Source: a virus
Lineage: Duplodnaviria > Caudoviricetes
IMG/VR virus record: IMGVR_UViG_3300028048_000064
Location: 64,001 to 128,000 of that record
DNA: 64,000 bases
Direction: 5' to 3' (one strand)
The translations under genes were made by a program, and so were the position numbers. The notes beneath the pieces are model-generated. The model did no database searches. It was given only the letters and a program-made list of their open reading frames with translations, and was not told the DNA's origin. Positions 57,787 to 64,000 of the stretch are shown here, one piece after another; positions within the stretch are counted from its first letter, which is position 1; each line of letters opens with the position of its first letter.

Positions 57787-58152
57787 ATGGCAAAGACTAA
57801 TACATTATCCGTATATAAAGTTACGGAGGAACTAACAACAAGAGTTTACTTACTTATTGGTAATTATAGTAAAAAATTTAAACATACCCTTGGTGATAAA
57901 ATATGTGAAGGATGTATAGAATTACTTAGTTATATAACATATGCTAATAGGTCAGAAGAAATTGCTGTACGCATAAAGTATTTGAATGATTTTCTTTTAA
58001 AATTTGAAATTGTAAAAAATCAATTAAGATTATCTTATAAACTTAAATGTATAAGTTTAAAACAAATGACTGATATTTCTGTTTTAATCAATGACGTTGA
58101 AAAACAGATTGTTAGTTGGAAGAAATTTAGTAAAACTAAGGAAAATAAATAG
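57787..58152 (+). CDS. avd: DGR accessory variability determinant (four-helix bundle)
   Basis: Basic 121-aa helical protein (LSVYK...KFKHTLGDKI...LRLSYKLKCIS...QIVSWKK) immediately upstream of the TR and RT. Confidence 0.85.
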   Translation: MAKTNTLSVYKVTEELTTRVYLLIGNYSKKFKHTLGDKICEGCIELLSYITYANRSEEIAVRIKYLNDFLLKFEIVKNQLRLSYKLKCISLKQMTDISVLINDVEKQIVSWKKFSKTKENK

Positions 58153-58281
58153 ATAAAAAATTTTTGTCAGAATCATTGAAGTTACGGCGACAATGAGTGA
58201 ACGTTTACTATTAAAAAGAGGGGTGTGCACTGTAAACCTTTAATATTAAGGAGCAGTTAAGTGAATAGTTACACCATGAAA

Positions 58282-58377
58282 ACGCAGAACTCGTGGAAAC
58301 TTAATTGGAATAATGGCAATACGAATAACAACAACCGTTATAACAATAACAACTACGTGAGGGCGTTCCAAGAACTT
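58282..58377 (+). repeat. DGR template repeat (TR)
   Basis: 13 AAY codons and 39 adenines; parent of VR1 and VR2; followed by a GCCACTAT/ATAGTGGC hairpin in the TR-RT spacer. Confidence 0.95.
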
Positions 58378-58468
58378 TTTATAGTAGATATTAAGAGCCA
58401 CTATATTTCAAATAATAGTGGCATTTTTTTTATTAACAATTTTGTTTAATAAAAAAAAAAATAATATT

Positions 58469-59671
58469 ATGGTGGCATATGAAGACATATTTGAAGCATA
58501 TTTTGAATGCAGAAAAAAGAAAAGAGGTAAAAAAACTTCTTTAGAGTTTGAAATGAGTTATGAGGCAGAATGCGTATCTTTAGCAAATGAAATAAATAAT
58601 CGTACATATGAGATTGGTACATCTATAGCATTTTTTGTGCAAAGACCAAAGAAAAGAGAAGTCTTCGCCGCCAATTTTAGAGACCGTGTTGTCCATCATT
58701 GGTTAGCGTTAAGGCTTGAACCTTTATTTGAAAATTTGTTTATTGAAGACACATATAGTTGCAGAAAAGATAAAGGTACGCAATATGGCATTAAATGTTT
58801 AAAAGAAAAAATTGAACATTTAAGTAATAATTATACTGAAGATTGTTATGTTTCAAAATTTGATTTACAAGGCTTTTTCATGTCAATTGACAAGGAAATT
58901 CTTTGGACAAAATTAAAACACTTTATAGAAGAAAACTACAAAAACACTGTTGATTTTGATGATGTATTATGGGTAACAGAAAAAATAGTCAAGCATTGTC
59001 CGGAGAAAAACTGTATAAAACGTTCTCCTGAAAGTTGGTGGATTGGTTTCCCCGAAGACAAGTCATTATTTACTTGTGGTGAAGGGAAAGGCCTTCCAAT
59101 TGGCAATTTAACATCTCAACTATTTGCTAATTTTTATATGCATGAATTTGATGCAATGATGGTAGAAAAATTTGGAGACGGGTATGGCAGATATGTTGAT
59201 GACTTTTTCATAATTGCTAAAGATAAACAAGAGATATTGAATTTTATAAATCCAATGAAAAAGTTTCTTTTTGAAAGACTGCATGTAAAGCTTCATCATA
59301 AAAAGATGTATTTGCAGCATGGGTCAAAAGGTGTTAAATTCATTGGGGGTGTTGTCAAACCAAAACGTATTTATACGGGTAATGAAACCATAACCAACTT
59401 CTGTAATGCCATTGATGACATTAATAAAAATTATCGTAAATATACAATTGAAGACATTGTATGCCGTCTTAATAGTTATTTTGGTTTTTTGAGACACACT
59501 AAAAGCTTTAATATAAGAAAAAGAATGTTTTTAAAACTTAATTTAAAAGTTACTAGTAAGCTTTATTGCAGAGGCTTTTACGAAAGTGTTGTAATTAAAA
59601 AACAGTTTAAAAAGAAAAATAAATTAAAAAATAAGATAAGAAGTTTAATAAAGAATAGTGTTGAATTTTAA
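58469..59671 (+). CDS. DGR reverse transcriptase
   Basis: KKREVFAANFRDRVVHH, YSCRKDKG, KFDLQGFF, GLPIGNLTSQLFANFY, RYVDDF, FIG. Start moved to ATG 58469. Confidence 0.95.
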   Translation: MVAYEDIFEAYFECRKKKRGKKTSLEFEMSYEAECVSLANEINNRTYEIGTSIAFFVQRPKKREVFAANFRDRVVHHWLALRLEPLFENLFIEDTYSCRKDKGTQYGIKCLKEKIEHLSNNYTEDCYVSKFDLQGFFMSIDKEILWTKLKHFIEENYKNTVDFDDVLWVTEKIVKHCPEKNCIKRSPESWWIGFPEDKSLFTCGEGKGLPIGNLTSQLFANFYMHEFDAMMVEKFGDGYGRYVDDFFIIAKDKQEILNFINPMKKFLFERLHVKLHHKKMYLQHGSKGVKFIGGVVKPKRIYTGNETITNFCNAIDDINKNYRKYTIEDIVCRLNSYFGFLRHTKSFNIRKRMFLKLNLKVTSKLYCRGFYESVVIKKQFKKKNKLKNKIRSLIKNSVEF

Positions 59672-59719: not shown

Positions 59720-60001
59720 ATGAAACAGAAAATACTAATTAACGAAAAACAGTTGCATAACATAGTAAAAAGAACTGTGAATAATGTCTTGAAAGAATGG
59801 GACGATGTTAATGATGAGTCATATCGTGAAAAAACGTTTATTGACGATTTATATAATATACGTGCATATATTGATGCTGCAATAGAGGATGCTGAAAAAG
59901 GTAAATATACGCAAGAGAATGGAAGCTGGTGGCTAAAGCGTTTATATGATAATTGCAAGAGCTTTATCAGTAATTATGATAAGGTTTTTAATTTTTCTTA
60001 A
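59720..60001 (+). CDS. hypothetical protein (possible head-internal protein)
   Basis: N-terminal KILINEKQLHNIVKRTVNNVLKE; preceded by TATATTTAT. Confidence 0.55.
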   Translation: MKQKILINEKQLHNIVKRTVNNVLKEWDDVNDESYREKTFIDDLYNIRAYIDAAIEDAEKGKYTQENGSWWLKRLYDNCKSFISNYDKVFNFS

Positions 60002-60061
60002 AAAAACTTGATACTTTTTGAAAACTACTCTATATTTATTTTTAAAATTAACCAAATAAAA

Positions 60062-60250
60062 ATGCAGAAATCTTACATCAGCGCATCAGCAAGCAGACAA
60101 TGGCTTCAGGGAACCACAACAAGTTGTTCTCCGATTAATAGTGCGTTGTACGATAATTTTGTGCCAGCATTTGAACATGGTTTAGATTATGATAAAATTG
60201 AAAAGGGTATAAAGCAGCGAAAAAAGAAAATATTAAATGTAGCCGCATAG
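60062..60250 (+). CDS. small hypothetical protein ending in -LNVAA
   Basis: Start moved to ATG 60062; followed by a terminator. Confidence 0.5.
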   Translation: MQKSYISASASRQWLQGTTTSCSPINSALYDNFVPAFEHGLDYDKIEKGIKQRKKKILNVAA

Positions 60251-60285
60251 AAACATTCCGATTTAAAACTCAATATATTTTCCCC

Positions 60286-60331
60286 AAAGCTGTGATGAAG
60301 ACCCTAAAAAAGTAAAAATCACGGCTTTTTT
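60286..60331 (+). terminator. intrinsic terminator
   Basis: AAAGCTGTGAT...ATCACGGCTTT plus a T run. Confidence 0.55.
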
Positions 60332-60392
60332 ATATTATAATAAGGTGTATTCCTTAAAAAACATTAAATGGGATAAAAAAGTTGAGAAAATA

Positions 60393-60424
60393 TTTGGATA
60401 TTTCAAAATTAGTTAGTACCTTTG
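60393..60424 (+). promoter_or_regulatory. Bacteroidota sigma-A-type promoter for the tRNA/ncRNA cluster
   Basis: TTTG-N20-TACCTTTG. Confidence 0.75.
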
Positions 60425-60727
60425 CATCGCAATTCAGAAATAATACTTCTGATAAAGCGAAAAACGGAACAATGAGGCAGAAATACCGAATGTAAGTTTC
60501 CAAAAAGAGTTCTTTGACATATTGGGACAACAAAATAAAGCAAAAAAATCAATGCGGAGAGGATTGGTGAAAAACCACATTCATTTTTGTCTATAAGGTG
60601 ACGAATTGGGGTCAGGTAGTCAGTAATTACAAGCCCACCTTACGGGATGAGCCTATAAACAAACAAAATGAATTAGTTCAGTAAATATAAGATAGAAATA
60701 TCTAACAGAATTCCAAATTGGTGAAAT

Positions 60728-60797
60728 GCGTCTTTGGTGTAATGGTTGCATATCTGATTTCCAATCAGAAGGACAGGTTCAATTCCTGAAGACTGCT
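60728..60797 (+). tRNA. tRNA-Gly(TCC), slightly atypical
   Basis: TCTGA-TT-TCC-AA-TCAGA anticodon arm and GGTTCAATTCC T arm; acceptor GCGTCTT/AAGAC(T)GC has a bulge. Confidence 0.75.
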
Positions 60798-60802
60798 CTC
60801 TT

Positions 60803-61256
60803 TTGCATATCATAGGTAGTTTCTTCAAAATTCGGTGGAAATCCTTCCCTTCAAACCTGCAATTTATAATGTGTGGCTTAAGTATGGCGGAGGAACCACA
60901 ACACTAATCAATAATGTGCAAGGATAATACCGAGTTAAATTGAGATAATGACCTCCTTAATTGGACTGGGAAAGTTAAAAGCTTTTTATCTTATAGTACC
61001 TAAGTTGAAATTTATATAGTAGAAAAGCGGAGCACGTGTGAATCGGAGGTAACCAGTTCTAGTAGAAGCACTTCATCGTGTGGGCTGGGCATAAATGAGG
61101 AGATACTACTATGTAACTTGCAAGAATTTCAATAAGGTAATTTCAGACTACAACAAACAAAGAATAGAGGAATAGCAATTTGCTATAAACTCCACTGTCA
61201 ACTGACAGGAAGTAGGCTTTATTGTACAAACCACTTTGTTTGGCTATGATATGCAA
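60803..61256 (+). ncRNA. large (~455 nt) end-paired structured RNA candidate
   Basis: 13-bp perfect closing stem TTGCATATCATAG/CTATGATATGCAA, many internal helices, and no ORF in the track. Confidence 0.6.
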
Positions 61257-61272
61257 TCTTTAGAAAATATAT

Positions 61273-61562
61273 AGAACAAGTACAGACCACTGAGTAGGAA
61301 CTGGGGAAGTGATAGGTAAATGCTAGCTTCATATTTATCATGTAGACGGACTCAAAGCAGTACCGACAGCCCAGTGAAAGGTGTTGGTTAGGATAAGGAG
61401 TTATCCAATACGTGAAGAGCAGCGTATTTCGTGAGAAGCCATAAGCAGGAACACAACAAATGCCGTAAAACAGCGCAAGTGCCTAATAGCGGGTTTCCTG
61501 ATTAAATCTGAATAGATGATAAAAGGTTGCAAAAGTCTGTACCTCGTAAATTTACTTGTTCT
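61273..61562 (+). ncRNA. ~290-nt end-paired structured RNA candidate
   Basis: AGAACAAGTA/TACTTGTTCT and GTACAGAC/GTCTGTAC pairings plus internal hairpins. Confidence 0.55.
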
Positions 61563-61569
61563 TTTGAAT

Positions 61570-61641
61570 GCTTGGATAGCTCAGAGGCAGAGCATCGCAC
61601 TGTTAATGCGAGGGTCGGGATATCGTAATTCTCTCCAAGCG
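61570..61641 (+). tRNA. tRNA-Asn(GTT) with non-canonical T arm
   Basis: GCTTGGA/TCCAAGC acceptor, TAGCTCAG D arm, TCGCA-CT-GTT-AA-TGCGA; T loop reads ATCGTAA. Confidence 0.75.
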
Positions 61642-61658
61642 CAAAATATTTTTGTATT

Positions 61659-61779
61659 AAAAACTCCGAGGGTTGGAAGATGGTTGGACTTACGGCAAAT
61701 GCTAGGAACCTGATGAACCGTAAGTCAAAGGTGTGTTGTAGGAGTTGCAGGTGAAACGGACAACAGTGTAGGAGTTTTT
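61659..61779 (+). ncRNA. ~120-nt structured RNA candidate between tRNAs
   Basis: AAAAACTCC/GGAGTTTTT, GACTTACGG/CCGTAAGTC and TGTTGT/ACAACA helices. Confidence 0.5.
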
Positions 61780-61785
61780 TTATAT

Positions 61786-61943
61786 GTGGCAGTAACTCAG
61801 TTGGTAGAGTGCCGGACTGAATACAGAGTAAACTGAAAAATCAAACTTCGTATTGGTTGAGTGGCTGAAACTTTTAAACATTGGTTCGAATCCAATATAC
61901 GAAGCAAATCCGGTTGTCGGTGGTTCAAATCCACCCTGCCGCA
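61786..61943 (+). tRNA. tRNA-Phe(GAA) interrupted by an 85-nt insert (61822-61906) containing a tRNA-like module
   Basis: Removing the insert gives a canonical cloverleaf: GTGGCAG/CTGCCGC, CCGGA-CT-GAA-AA-TCCGG, GGTGG-TTCAAAT-CCACC. Confidence 0.88.
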
Positions 61944-61971
61944 CATTTATATGAAAAAAAAACGTTCGAAA

Positions 61972-62003
61972 CTTGTTTATTCAACTATTTATTAGTATAT
62001 TTG
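61972..62003 (+). promoter_or_regulatory. Bacteroidota sigma-A-type promoter for the endonuclease
   Basis: CTTG-N20-TATATTTG. Confidence 0.65.
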
Positions 62004-62021
62004 CAATATATTAGTAAAAAA

Positions 62022-63068
62022 ATGAAAATGATTGATATTACAAGCGACGAAAACAAGAGAGAAATTTACAAATTATTTGATTCTTTTAATAAAAAAGAAG
62101 ACATATACAATTATTTTGGAATAAGTCATAATAGCTATGGTGTTAAGTATGTTAATGCTATTGCATTAGAGATTAATTTTGATTTAAATATTTATCATAA
62201 AAGACGTTTTCCGGAAAGATTTTGTTTAAATTGTGGAAAAAAATTAAAAAAAGGACAAAAGAAATTTTGTGGCCATTCTTGTTCAGCCTCATATAATAAT
62301 GCTACAAGTGCAAAAGTTGTTAATAAGAAGAAAAAACAAGTAAAAAGTCGGGTAAACAAACAAAATAAATGTAAAGTATGTGGAAAAATAGATTGTTTAC
62401 ATACAGGCGTTTGTAATCATCATTCTTTAAATTGGTTTGATAATCTTATATATTTCGGTTTTGATAAAACGAAGTTAGGAACTGATGGCGTTTTTAATGA
62501 ATATGAAAATGTAAAAAAGAAAATTTCAGATGAATATAAAAATGGTTTGTCTGTATCTGCAATCAAAGAAAAATATAATTATCAGGGTTCAACTGAACGT
62601 CTTGTTCATGTTATGAAAAACATGGGAATTAATTTACGTTGTTTATCTGATGCTTTGCGTAAAGCCATTAGCGAAAAACGTTGTAAATTGCCAGAAGTTA
62701 TGAAACAATTTAATTATGGGTGGCATAATACATGGGATGGATACAAAGTTTTTTATCGCAGTTCATATGAATATGATTTATGCAAATATTTTGATGACAG
62801 AAAAATACACTATGAAATGGAAAATTTAGTAATTGAGTATTTTGACACCATTTTAAATAAAAAGCGTTATGCGTTACCAGATTTTTATATTGAAAAAGAG
62901 AATAAAATTATAGAAGTTAAATCAAGAGTGACATTTGTTAAACAGAATATGATAGATAAAATGAAACGTTATATAGAGTTAGGGTATGATGTTTTATTAA
63001 ATTATGAGCATAAAATGTATACCTTTGATGAAATGCTTAAAATTGAAGAATATAAGTATAAGATTTAA
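62022..63068 (+). CDS. free-standing homing-type endonuclease: zinc finger plus C-terminal PD-(D/E)xK (TnsA-N-like) domain
   Basis: CLNCGK...KFCGHSC zinc finger; YRSSYE...YALPDFYI...IIEVK. Start moved to ATG 62022. Confidence 0.75.
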   Translation: MKMIDITSDENKREIYKLFDSFNKKEDIYNYFGISHNSYGVKYVNAIALEINFDLNIYHKRRFPERFCLNCGKKLKKGQKKFCGHSCSASYNNATSAKVVNKKKKQVKSRVNKQNKCKVCGKIDCLHTGVCNHHSLNWFDNLIYFGFDKTKLGTDGVFNEYENVKKKISDEYKNGLSVSAIKEKYNYQGSTERLVHVMKNMGINLRCLSDALRKAISEKRCKLPEVMKQFNYGWHNTWDGYKVFYRSSYEYDLCKYFDDRKIHYEMENLVIEYFDTILNKKRYALPDFYIEKENKIIEVKSRVTFVKQNMIDKMKRYIELGYDVLLNYEHKMYTFDEMLKIEEYKYKI

Positions 63069-63075
63069 ATAATTT

Positions 63076-63274
63076 GGGAGGTTATTCCGTAAGTGGTAGC
63101 GGGGCTGACTGTATACAGAGTAAACTGAAAATCAAATTTTAGTTTGGCTGAGTGGTTGAAAGCTAAGGCACTAAGTGCTGAGTGAATTTACACTCACATT
63201 CGCCGGTTCGAATCCGACAACTAAAACAAATCAGCTGCTTAACGGCTCGGGTGGTTCGACTCCATCACCTCCCA
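63076..63274 (+). tRNA. tRNA-Tyr(GTA) interrupted by a 115-nt insert (63114-63228) containing a tRNA-like module
   Basis: Removing the insert gives GGGAGGT/ACCTCCC, GCTGA-CT-GTA-AA-TCAGC, a long variable arm and GGTGG-TTCGACT-CCATC. Confidence 0.88.
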
Positions 63275-63308
63275 CATAATTTTTCATAACTAATGTTTCT
63301 GATTGAAT

Positions 63309-63599
63309 ATGTTACAGAAAATTAAAGAAAAATATAAACGATACAAAAGGTTAAAAGGACTTAGAACATATCGTAAGTTAAGAAACACTTTTGATACTGA
63401 ATATGGAAAATTCCTTGCTTATATGTATTATGTCGGTGGTGAAGGAAAATTAGAAGACTTATATAAGTTATTTAATCCTGAAATAATTAGACGTGCTTGG
63501 TTTGCCGGATATTTTAACGTCTATGATAAAAATTTAGGGTGGAAAGACCATCTGTACAATACAGATGTATATAAAAAATATGATAATGGAAAAAAATAA
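63309..63599 (+). CDS. hypothetical protein
   Basis: Basic ~96-aa ORF within the tRNA cluster. Confidence 0.5.
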   Translation: MLQKIKEKYKRYKRLKGLRTYRKLRNTFDTEYGKFLAYMYYVGGEGKLEDLYKLFNPEIIRRAWFAGYFNVYDKNLGWKDHLYNTDVYKKYDNGKK

Positions 63600-63832
63600 A
63601 ATTCAGACCCGATGTTTTGCTGTGTCAGAGTAAATAAACAGTAGGTGGGATATGGTATGTCACCTTGATAGAAGAAACAGAGAGAAACTGTGCTAATATC
63701 AGAATAAACCATTAATACTAGTTAAGGGTAATGAGGTTTTGTAGGTAAGGAAACCGCCGCACTAAGTTTGGAAACAATAAATAAGAACTAAGTGAAATGG
63801 TAAGTTGGTTTATGGATTTCCAACGTAAATTT

Positions 63833-63905
63833 AGCCCATTCATCTAGCGGCCTAGGATACATGCCTCTCACGCATGTCACAGCAGTTCAAATCTGCTATG
63901 GGTTA
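63833..63905 (+). tRNA. tRNA-Glu(CTC)
   Basis: AGCCCAT/ATGGGTT, CATGC-CT-CTC-AC-GCATG, AGCAG-TTCAAAT-CTGCT. Confidence 0.88.
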
Positions 63906-63916
63906 CAAATTATTTT

Positions 63917-63993
63917 GGGGGCGTAGTTCAGTTGGCTAGAACATCTGCTTTGCAAGCAGGGGGTCGTGGGTTCAAGTCCCACCGTCTCCACCA
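63917..63993 (+). tRNA. tRNA-Ala(TGC) with encoded CCA
   Basis: GGGGGCG/CGTCTCC with G3-U70, TT-TGC-AA loop, GTGGG-TTCAAGT-CCCAC, ACCA. Confidence 0.95.
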
Positions 63994-64000
63994 ACTTGAT

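Follow-up and report, generated by a model that had tools for sequence, protein, structure and literature searches.

The tRNA-Phe(GAA) gene at positions 61786–61943 (+ strand) of the window, meaning the whole 64,000-nt stretch of DNA that was analysed, is interrupted within its anticodon by an 85-nt insert, and this insert belongs to a family of introns that recurs in tRNA genes of Lak-type phages. The 150-kb fragment to which the window belongs comes from a bovine gut (rumen) sample and represents a Lak-like megaphage. We propose that the insert is a mobile, protein-dependent tRNA intron of the Lak-megaphage type, which would be cut by the tRNA end-maturation enzymes of the host and sealed by a phage RNA ligase, a reading to which we give an even chance of being correct. 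New in this work are the rule for the intron boundaries and the terminal C, the mobility of the intron, the occurrence of its leader as a stand-alone module, and the RNA ligase genes in or beside the tRNA arrays.

The insert is one of the 'enigmatic' tRNA introns of Lak megaphages described by Devoto et al. (2019; PMC6784885; bioRxiv 10.1101/356790), who listed introns in the tRNA genes for Phe (GAA), Gly (TCC), Thr (TGT), and Tyr (GTA), found that their presence varies between genomes, and noted that one intron 'may encode a tRNA' (PMC6784885). Those introns share with the insert the phage group, the anticodon-loop site, and the tRNAs concerned, and the copies in the Prevotella phages Lak-A2 and Lak-B1 were recovered by our covariance model R1. 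However, they were published without an architecture, a boundary rule, or a mechanism, and the window copy is a bovine-rumen relative whose sequence is unlike that of the Lak-A Phe intron. Crisci et al. (2021) merely mentioned the Lak tRNA introns, and a literature search found no paper giving a mechanism for them.

A tRNA-Phe gene split by a reduced tRNA-like insert

The Rfam tRNA model (RF00005) matched a full tRNA over 61786–61943 with 52.4 bits and approximately 88 nt looped out of the anticodon loop. When positions 61821–61905 were taken out, a 73-nt tRNA-Phe cloverleaf with a 7-nt anticodon loop and A73 remained (Table 1). A sibling intron lies 1.3 kb downstream, in the tRNA-Tyr(GTA) gene at 63076–63274; it has the same leader and insertion place as the Phe intron and a longer tRNA-like body. 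This inner body scored 34 bits as a tRNA with Rfam and resembles a class-II tRNA almost in full, except that its anticodon hairpin is collapsed. The outer tRNAs of the split genes all scored as tRNAs, and no Phe or Tyr tRNA gene without an intron was found in the 150-kb fragment.

ARAGORN called the Phe gene tRNA-Cys(GCA), with the intron placed one base leftward and the C left in the exon. This call was rejected on tRNA identity, as the discriminator here is A73 and a Cys gene exists separately, with U73. In the same register, moreover, the class-II Tyr body would become Cys and the Asn bodies would become Ser. For annotation, this means that bacterial tRNA finders miss or mis-assign such split genes, as in the conversion of Phe to Cys by ARAGORN.

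Table 1. Features of the split tRNA-Phe gene and its surroundings (window coordinates)
Feature	Position	Strand	Basis
tRNA-Phe(GAA) exon 1, up to anticodon nt 35	61786–61820	+	Rfam RF00005; spliced cloverleaf
Intron, 85 nt (equivalent: 61822–61906)	61821–61905	+	Covariance model R1 (97.2 bits, E 2.5e-15); family boundary rule
Leader, 25 nt	61821–61845	+	Sequence reading
Leader hairpin, 3-bp stem (61824–61826/61833–61835), purine-rich 6-nt loop	61824–61835	+	Covariation; RNAalifold de novo
A-rich linker, conserved AAAUYA core	61836–61845	+	Conserved columns, alignments A1 and A2
Acceptor-like 8-bp stem, 5′ strand, including −1:73-type pair	61846–61853	+	Pairing in 15 parsed copies
D arm, class-II type, 3-bp stem, GG at 61863–61864	61856–61871	+	Sequence
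8-nt linker replacing anticodon and variable arms	61872–61879	+	Sequence
T arm, 5-bp stem (61880–61884/61892–61896), canonical 7-nt T loop (61885–61891)	61880–61896	+	Sequence; covariation
Acceptor-like stem, 3′ strand	61897–61904	+	Pairing, covariation
Single unpaired C, predicted 3′ splice site after it	61905	+	Invariant across family copies
tRNA-Phe exon 2, starting at anticodon nt 36	61906–61943	+	Rfam RF00005; spliced cloverleaf
ORF between the two split tRNA genes, 348 aa	62022–63068	+	Atlas feature search; C-terminal motif
Sibling intron, 115 nt, in tRNA-Tyr(GTA)	63113–63227	+	R1 69 bits

Direct reading of the sequence bore out the initial annotation of the insert as an acceptor stem, a D arm with GG, and a T arm, with an 8-nt linker standing for the anticodon and variable arms; two unpaired nucleotides separate the 5′ strand of the acceptor-like stem from the D arm. 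We also agree that the insert is not a decoding tRNA. It has no anticodon arm, and among the relatives the body may have no more than a GG loop at its middle. The body alone (61846–61905) gave no Rfam tRNA match at E ≤ 1 and no ARAGORN call, and is not the cloverleaf with an anticodon arm and >29 bits that defines a canonical tRNA. To the earlier description we add the membership of the insert in a mobile intron family, the recognition of its 24-nt 'leader' as a conserved and covarying module, and the finding that the D arm is its least conserved part.

Thermodynamic folding alone does not single out the tRNA-like fold. The minimum free energy structure of the insert (−14.1 kcal/mol, z = −0.9) kept the acceptor stem and not the T arm, and the tRNA-like fold came to −10.3 to −12.6 kcal/mol. 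When the whole precursor was folded, the outer cloverleaf and the inner acceptor stem were predicted together (z = −2.3). The fold is more than a chance arrangement, because the covariance model of the family found only two matches with E < 1e-9 in the 150-kb genome, namely this insert and its tRNA-Tyr sibling, and because the helices covary in the relatives.

Relatives of the insert and covariation of three helices

Approximately 20 distinct relatives were recovered, by pattern scans and with model R1, from the Phe, Tyr, Asn, Gly, Arg, Thr, and Lys tRNA genes of Lak-type phages. Their sources were two further megaphage contigs of IMG/VR (G001 and G007), the published Prevotella phages Lak-A2 and Lak-B1, and several metagenome contigs. 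The insert has in common with this family its position in the anticodon loop, the leader hairpin followed by the AAAUYA linker, the 8 + 5-bp stack with the T loop, and a C as the last nucleotide. A metagenome scan with a 13-mer plus the T loop gave mostly chance matches and 7 useful loci. Apart from an additional Arg intron (L289) and what may be a stand-alone leader (L219), scans of viral contigs for two other leader variants returned nearly exclusively coding-sequence or chance matches, and a BLAST search of the split genes against the phage collection retrieved exon pieces only.

When the copies were parsed module by module, 15 of 15 formed 8 + 5 bp around a T loop and ended in a single C, and 7 unrelated acceptor-like stem sequences occurred among them, with 8 of 8 pairs formed in all 15. 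In a model-fitted alignment of 24 distinct rows (four of them ordinary tRNAs), which leans towards the model and with which the independent 15-copy parse agrees, 94.2% of the cells were paired vs 60.6% in shuffles. The covariation score was 0.88 vs 0.22 in shuffles, none of 500 shuffles reached 0.88, and slid controls scored 0.08–0.19. Three helices covaried strongly in this alignment: the leader hairpin (100% of cells paired, with all three pairs changing on both sides), the acceptor-like stem (99.5%, all 8 pairs), and the T stem (98.3%, 4 of 5 pairs). The D stem did not; only 63.5% of its cells were paired, so that its conservation across the family is weak. A single clear compensatory change was seen, inside the L062/L125 Tyr subgroup, and in L141 the D arm is reduced to a GG loop. 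RNAalifold, applied to a MAFFT alignment, recovered the leader hairpin and the T stem. Among all column pairs of 21 distinct introns with their flanks, no covarying run was found beyond the three helices, including any leader pseudoknot.

A self-splicing insert, whether a group I intron or a small ribozyme, is extremely improbable. The only established mechanism that we know of for tRNA introns of bacteria and phages is the self-splicing of group I introns, which generally speaks for this class, and the insert resembles them in its anticodon-loop site, its mobility, and its association with a probable homing endonuclease gene. However, group I introns have a conserved P3–P9 catalytic core and usually exceed 200 nt, whereas the insert, at 85 nt, is far below group I size (approximately a third or less), has no ribozyme core, and gave no Rfam match at E ≤ 1 when 60000–64000 was searched; moreover, only three simple helices covary, with no pseudoknot signal.

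The middle of the body is highly variable. The linker region (8 nt here) measures 0–9 nt in the relatives or is expanded to 40–90 nt, and the body middle ranges from a bare 13-nt GG loop (L141) to approximately 110 nt (Lak-B1 Asn). The acceptor/T stack with the T loop is therefore the constant part, and its elbow partner is the variable part. Such variation would be odd for a specific ligand, and this bears on a reading in which the released mini-tRNA is the product that matters, acting as a decoy or regulator of elbow-binding factors, with the surrounding tRNA gene serving mainly as a scaffold for expression and processing. The suggested targets are tRNA-targeting defence nucleases, the CCA-adding enzyme, and Ro60-type complexes, and the reading is compatible with splicing. 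The top half of the body is under strong structural selection, and the C at the end of an excised body could be extended to CCA, as this reading would have it. Nevertheless, the body conserves its helices and T loop only, on unrelated stems, the exons are intact and covarying, and nothing links the copies to any defence system, so that we consider a mini-tRNA product distinctly improbable.

Inserts of other kinds were also encountered. A third split tRNA gene, in the G000 genome at 136097–136262 (beyond the window), holds a 93-nt insert of different build, which has no such leader, scores 38 bits as a tRNA in its inner part, and was not matched by model R1. In the G007 genome, a Thr-type tRNA at 266464–266581 (L199) is split by an insert with a leader hairpin and a closing stem and without a T loop, which may be degenerate or a different subtype.

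Intron boundaries and the terminal C

In the window Phe copy, an A at each end makes 61821–61905 and 61822–61906 equivalent, and the insertion point is likewise ambiguous by one A in the window Tyr, L005 Tyr, and L039 Phe genes. The boundary rule was fixed by the unambiguous Asn and Lak-A2 Phe and Gly cases. Insertion occurs at 35/36 in the Asn genes of L005, L141, Lak-A2, and Lak-B1, and at 36/37 in the Phe genes of Lak-A2 and Lak-B1, the Tyr genes of the L062 group, Lak-A2 Gly, G007 Arg, G001 Thr and Lys, and Lak-A2 Thr. Every intron begins with W-U-A, 2–3 nt before the hairpin, and ends with the stem plus a C. The insertion point is thus 35/36 or 36/37 according to the gene, yet the intron ends are constant, indicating that the intron, and not the tRNA, sets its own boundaries. 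The interval 61822–61906 originally given for the insert is therefore an equivalent reading, although the relatives place the intron one base to the left, and of the 'CA' at which it was said to end, the C belongs to the intron whereas the A falls in the exon under the family rule. Two 'Tyr' calls of Devoto et al. (2019) also read better as Asn under this rule.

The single terminal C has a counterpart in ordinary tRNA genes. In five such phages (G000, G001, G007, Lak-A2, and Lak-B1), nt 74 was a C in 99 of 102 ordinary tRNA genes, and CCA was present in 4 of 102. Three Bacteroidales genomes (G008–G010; Prevotellaceae, Paraprevotella, and Phocaeicola) gave C74 in 32 of 33 tRNA genes and CCA in 2 of 33, so that the pooled counts were 131/135 and 6/135, respectively. 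The 3′ junction after a single C parallels this N73-C74, no-CCA signature, and since C74 is near-universal in the phage and Bacteroidales tRNA genes, the last intron nucleotide copies a host-wide tRNA-gene 3′ signature. The eighth base pair of the stem is the equivalent of −1:73 and covaries in the introns; in the 102 ordinary genes, a −1:73 pair was no commoner than expected from base composition (73 observed vs 69 expected). A host enzyme that generally cleaves after C74 and one that cleaves after the first unpaired nucleotide would both be predicted to cut at the 3′ junction; for an enzyme that cuts after N73, the rule would hold only if the additional −1:73 pair moved the cut by one nucleotide. 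Judged by sequence comparison, the terminal-C parallel is the strongest argument for regarding the insert as a processing signal. This function had been put forward in the initial annotation, and it is the best-supported reading through the match of the 3′ boundary to the tRNA-gene signature, a match by comparison only, although no RNA ends were observed. The decoy role named alongside it has nothing specific in its favour.

Fixed ends of this kind could also be the work of a dedicated, unrecognised phage endonuclease that grips the tRNA-like body and cuts both junctions, with no part for host RNase P or RNase Z. This is unlikely, given that a terminal C copying a host-wide signature would be needless for a private enzyme, that no PF01974 gene was found in the five phage genomes (two of them complete), and that the leader module is found in small unrelated phages too. 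Its attractions are that both junctions are fixed relative to the intron structure, that the 5′ site follows no known tRNA-enzyme logic, and that the majority of Lak genes lack a functional assignment (Devoto et al. 2019; PMC6784885).

Mobility of the intron and neighbouring nuclease genes

The tRNA-Tyr exons are identical in the window and in contig L005, whereas the introns are different. The L005 Tyr intron is approximately 90% identical to the window Phe intron and shows a compensatory change in the T stem, from A-U to G-C. One intron lineage therefore occupies Phe in the window and Tyr in L005, indicating that the intron moves. In the close relative L096, the Phe intron is present, the Tyr gene is different and intron-less, and there is no ORF between them.

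The ORF that lies between the two split genes in the window was nearest to viral 'endonuclease family' clusters in the Atlas feature search (0.97), with NUMOD3, TnsA-like, and DUF559 neighbours. It contains zinc-ribbon-like CxxC pairs, and its C-terminus reads like a PD-(D/E)xK motif; no Pfam match and no match in a PDB sequence search were obtained. On these features, the ORF is a probable free-standing homing endonuclease, which we offer as a lead only. An HNH endonuclease gene adjoins the ligase gene described below.

Movement between Phe and Tyr genes and the nuclease genes adjoining the split genes would suit a selfish insertion that is never removed, in which case the split tRNA would be dead and the tRNA-like shape would reflect the origin of the insert or its means of finding anticodon loops. 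RNA was seen unspliced only, and host tRNAs could cover the Phe and Tyr codons. Against this stand perfect exon cloverleaves in deeply diverged lineages with compensatory changes, as in the T stem of the Phe exons between Lak-A2 and Lak-B1, the retention of the intron at the orthologous Phe gene in these two phages, and the presence of up to four intron-bearing tRNA genes per genome. We therefore hold permanent retention of the insert to be improbable.

The leader as a stand-alone module

The leader module (hairpin plus A-rich tail) also occurs without the tRNA-like body, as a single-copy, intergenic element 30–60 nt upstream of a start codon, in small, unrelated phages. Two lineages were distinguished. 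The first comprises 13 contigs (L004, L006–L014, L016–L019) with the variant of the window, and the second comprises 4 contigs (L035, L037, L048, and L051; e.g., L035:7667–7700) with the Lak-B1 variant over approximately 24 nt. In the second lineage (e.g., L035), the leader precedes the gene upstream of the major head protein gene. The first stand-alone match, taken alone, could be a chance 17-mer match in so large a collection, but the extended sequence identities argue against chance for the stand-alone leaders.

Two other identities were considered for the leader. A promoter for a phage RNA polymerase is unlikely, as the stand-alone motif is single-copy in five phage contigs and the hairpin stem covaries as an RNA structure. 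The idea that the leader copies the anticodon loop of its target was dropped, as the likeness is limited to CAG/CUG stems and fails for the Thr, Gly, and Lys copies.

RNA ligase genes and the proposed splicing route

An RNA ligase gene (PF09414, 222 aa, E 5.6e-28) is located at genome positions 132122–132790, inside the tRNA array of this genome and 4 kb past the window, and homologues were found near tRNA arrays in G001, Lak-A2, and Lak-B1; G007 (82% complete) has introns and gave no PF09414 match. A PDB sequence search with the ligase identified no solved relative. Large phages often carry RNA ligases for other reasons. In the five phage genomes, two of which are complete, no RtcB, no archaeal-type splicing endonuclease (PF01974), and no RNase Z-type metallo-beta-lactamase was found, so that the cuts are probably made by enzymes of the host. 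The ends left by RNase P and RNase Z are 3′-OH and 5′-phosphate, and the type of the phage ligase fits such ends.

From the observed architecture, covariation, boundary rule, C74 parallel, mobility, and ligase genes, we infer splicing itself and each of its enzymatic steps as follows. The intron has two modules: a hairpin on the 5′ side, whose hexaloop is purine-rich and which is followed by an A-rich tail, and a pre-tRNA-like 'top half'. The latter, a non-decoding structure composed of the 13-bp acceptor/T stack, the T loop, and the GG element without an anticodon arm, would present the intron to the tRNA end-maturation enzymes of the host. In sequence, the insert has substrate features expected for RNase P and RNase Z (the acceptor/T stack, the T loop, and no CCA after the discriminator). 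An RNase Z-type enzyme would cut the 3′ splice site after the C74-like C, which is also the first unpaired nucleotide after the stem, and would leave a 5′-phosphate on exon 2. The cut by RNase P would separate the leader from the stem. Because the 5′ splice site is 25 nt upstream of the RNase P site, these two enzymes alone could not produce it, and the model therefore lacks one enzyme. Since precise trimming back by an exonuclease is unlikely, the conserved hairpin probably directs a separate endonucleolytic cut. The 5′ splice site, 2–3 nt upstream of the leader hairpin, would then be set by the hairpin via a further putative endonuclease; the junction context beside the hairpin, N followed by W-U-A, is presumably reminiscent of RNase E/G-type sites. 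The outer anticodon stem would hold the exons together, and the ATP-dependent RNA ligase of the phage would seal them by joining the 3′-OH to the 5′-phosphate. Among the points against this route is the poor conservation of the D arm, and hence of the elbow.

Known systems resemble parts of this route. In the mammalian MALAT1/mascRNA and MEN-beta transcripts, an embedded non-decoding tRNA-like fold is the cut signal for RNase P and RNase Z. The likeness lies in such a fold inside a longer transcript; however, MALAT1/mascRNA and MEN-beta make a 3′ end with no exon rejoining and no leader hairpin, and mascRNA keeps an anticodon-arm-like stem. The tRNA-like domain of tmRNA shares the acceptor/T stack, the T loop, a reduced D element, the lack of an anticodon arm, and recognition by tRNA enzymes, but tmRNA ends in CCA, is charged with Ala, and has a tag frame, whereas the insert has no G3:U70 (3:70 is C-G), no CCA, and an 8-bp stem. 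ARAGORN called no tmRNA at the insert, which falls outside the definition of a tmRNA. Archaeal and eukaryal tRNA introns are similarly short, protein-dependent, and close to the anticodon, with the mature domain holding the exons and a ligase sealing them. They differ in lying at 37/38 and in using EndA and RtcB with the opposite end chemistry, whereas the insert lies at 35/36 or 36/37; no bulge–helix–bulge, with its two 3-nt bulges about a 4-bp helix, could be drawn, the junction flanks of the insert show no complementarity, and EndA/RtcB genes are absent from the five genomes. In the repair by T4 Pnk and Rnl1, a phage RNA ligase reseals a broken anticodon loop held by the tRNA body. The T4 system responds to cleavage by a host nuclease and has to heal the ends, whereas the intron would be cut in a programmed way and the enzyme of the phage is a PF09414 ligase of 222 aa.

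RNA contigs of the region

The RNA evidence came from two metatranscriptome runs (X2 and X3) of one bovine sample. An RNA contig of run X2 extends unbroken over 61752–63823, through both introns, and represents unspliced precursor or carried-over DNA. The contigs of the two runs contained no exon join, intron circle, or end at 61821, 61846, or 61906, although contigs cannot show absence. Standard libraries lose mature tRNAs.

In the intergenic stretch 61268–61569, RNA contigs from both runs of this one sample showed head-to-tail joins, with cycle lengths of 297 and 299 nt and a depth of 560–900. These joins were absent from the DNA runs, indicating that RNA ends were ligated on transcripts of this phage, in one sample only. 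In run X3, the join agrees with a 3′ end produced where RNase P would cut tRNA-Asn. The RNA of approximately 298 nt is probably a circular or concatemeric phage RNA ending beside the 5′ end of tRNA-Asn. Its sequence, which had no Rfam match, is approximately 90% conserved in G001 and begins there 3 nt past a tRNA-Asn.

In its widest form, the proposal is that these introns are a third kind of tRNA intron and the first to be spliced by proteins in bacteria or their viruses, with cutting by host end-maturation enzymes, resealing by a phage ligase, a portable 5′ hairpin signal for RNA processing that also serves mRNAs of structural genes in other Bacteroidota phages, and circular phage RNAs made by the ligase. 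We advance it tentatively, as a possibility with the balance somewhat against it. If true, it would amount to a new splicing route, in which a short intron makes use of RNase P/Z-type enzymes and a ligase, and would explain a seven-year-old puzzle of megaphage genomes. The boundary rule, by which the intron ends at a C74-like C, makes the model directly testable.

Several other features of the region were recorded. The tRNA-Asn(GTT) gene at 61570–61641 (Rfam, 50.8 bits) was missed by ARAGORN and has an aberrant T arm; its G001 orthologue holds an intron of the same family. RNA contig depth was 270–480 over the ORF-free stretches 60500–61261 and 63613–63758 vs 6–40 over the neighbouring ORF, and this high-depth intergenic RNA fits the 'highly expressed intergenic regions' of Lak phages. 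A weak match resembling DUF2693 RNA, far below threshold, was found at 60509–60602. Directly upstream of the non-coding stretch, at 57787–59671, are the genes of a diversity-generating retroelement, which encode Avd (PHROG 3206, E 2.8e-23) and a reverse transcriptase (RVT_1, E 5e-20).
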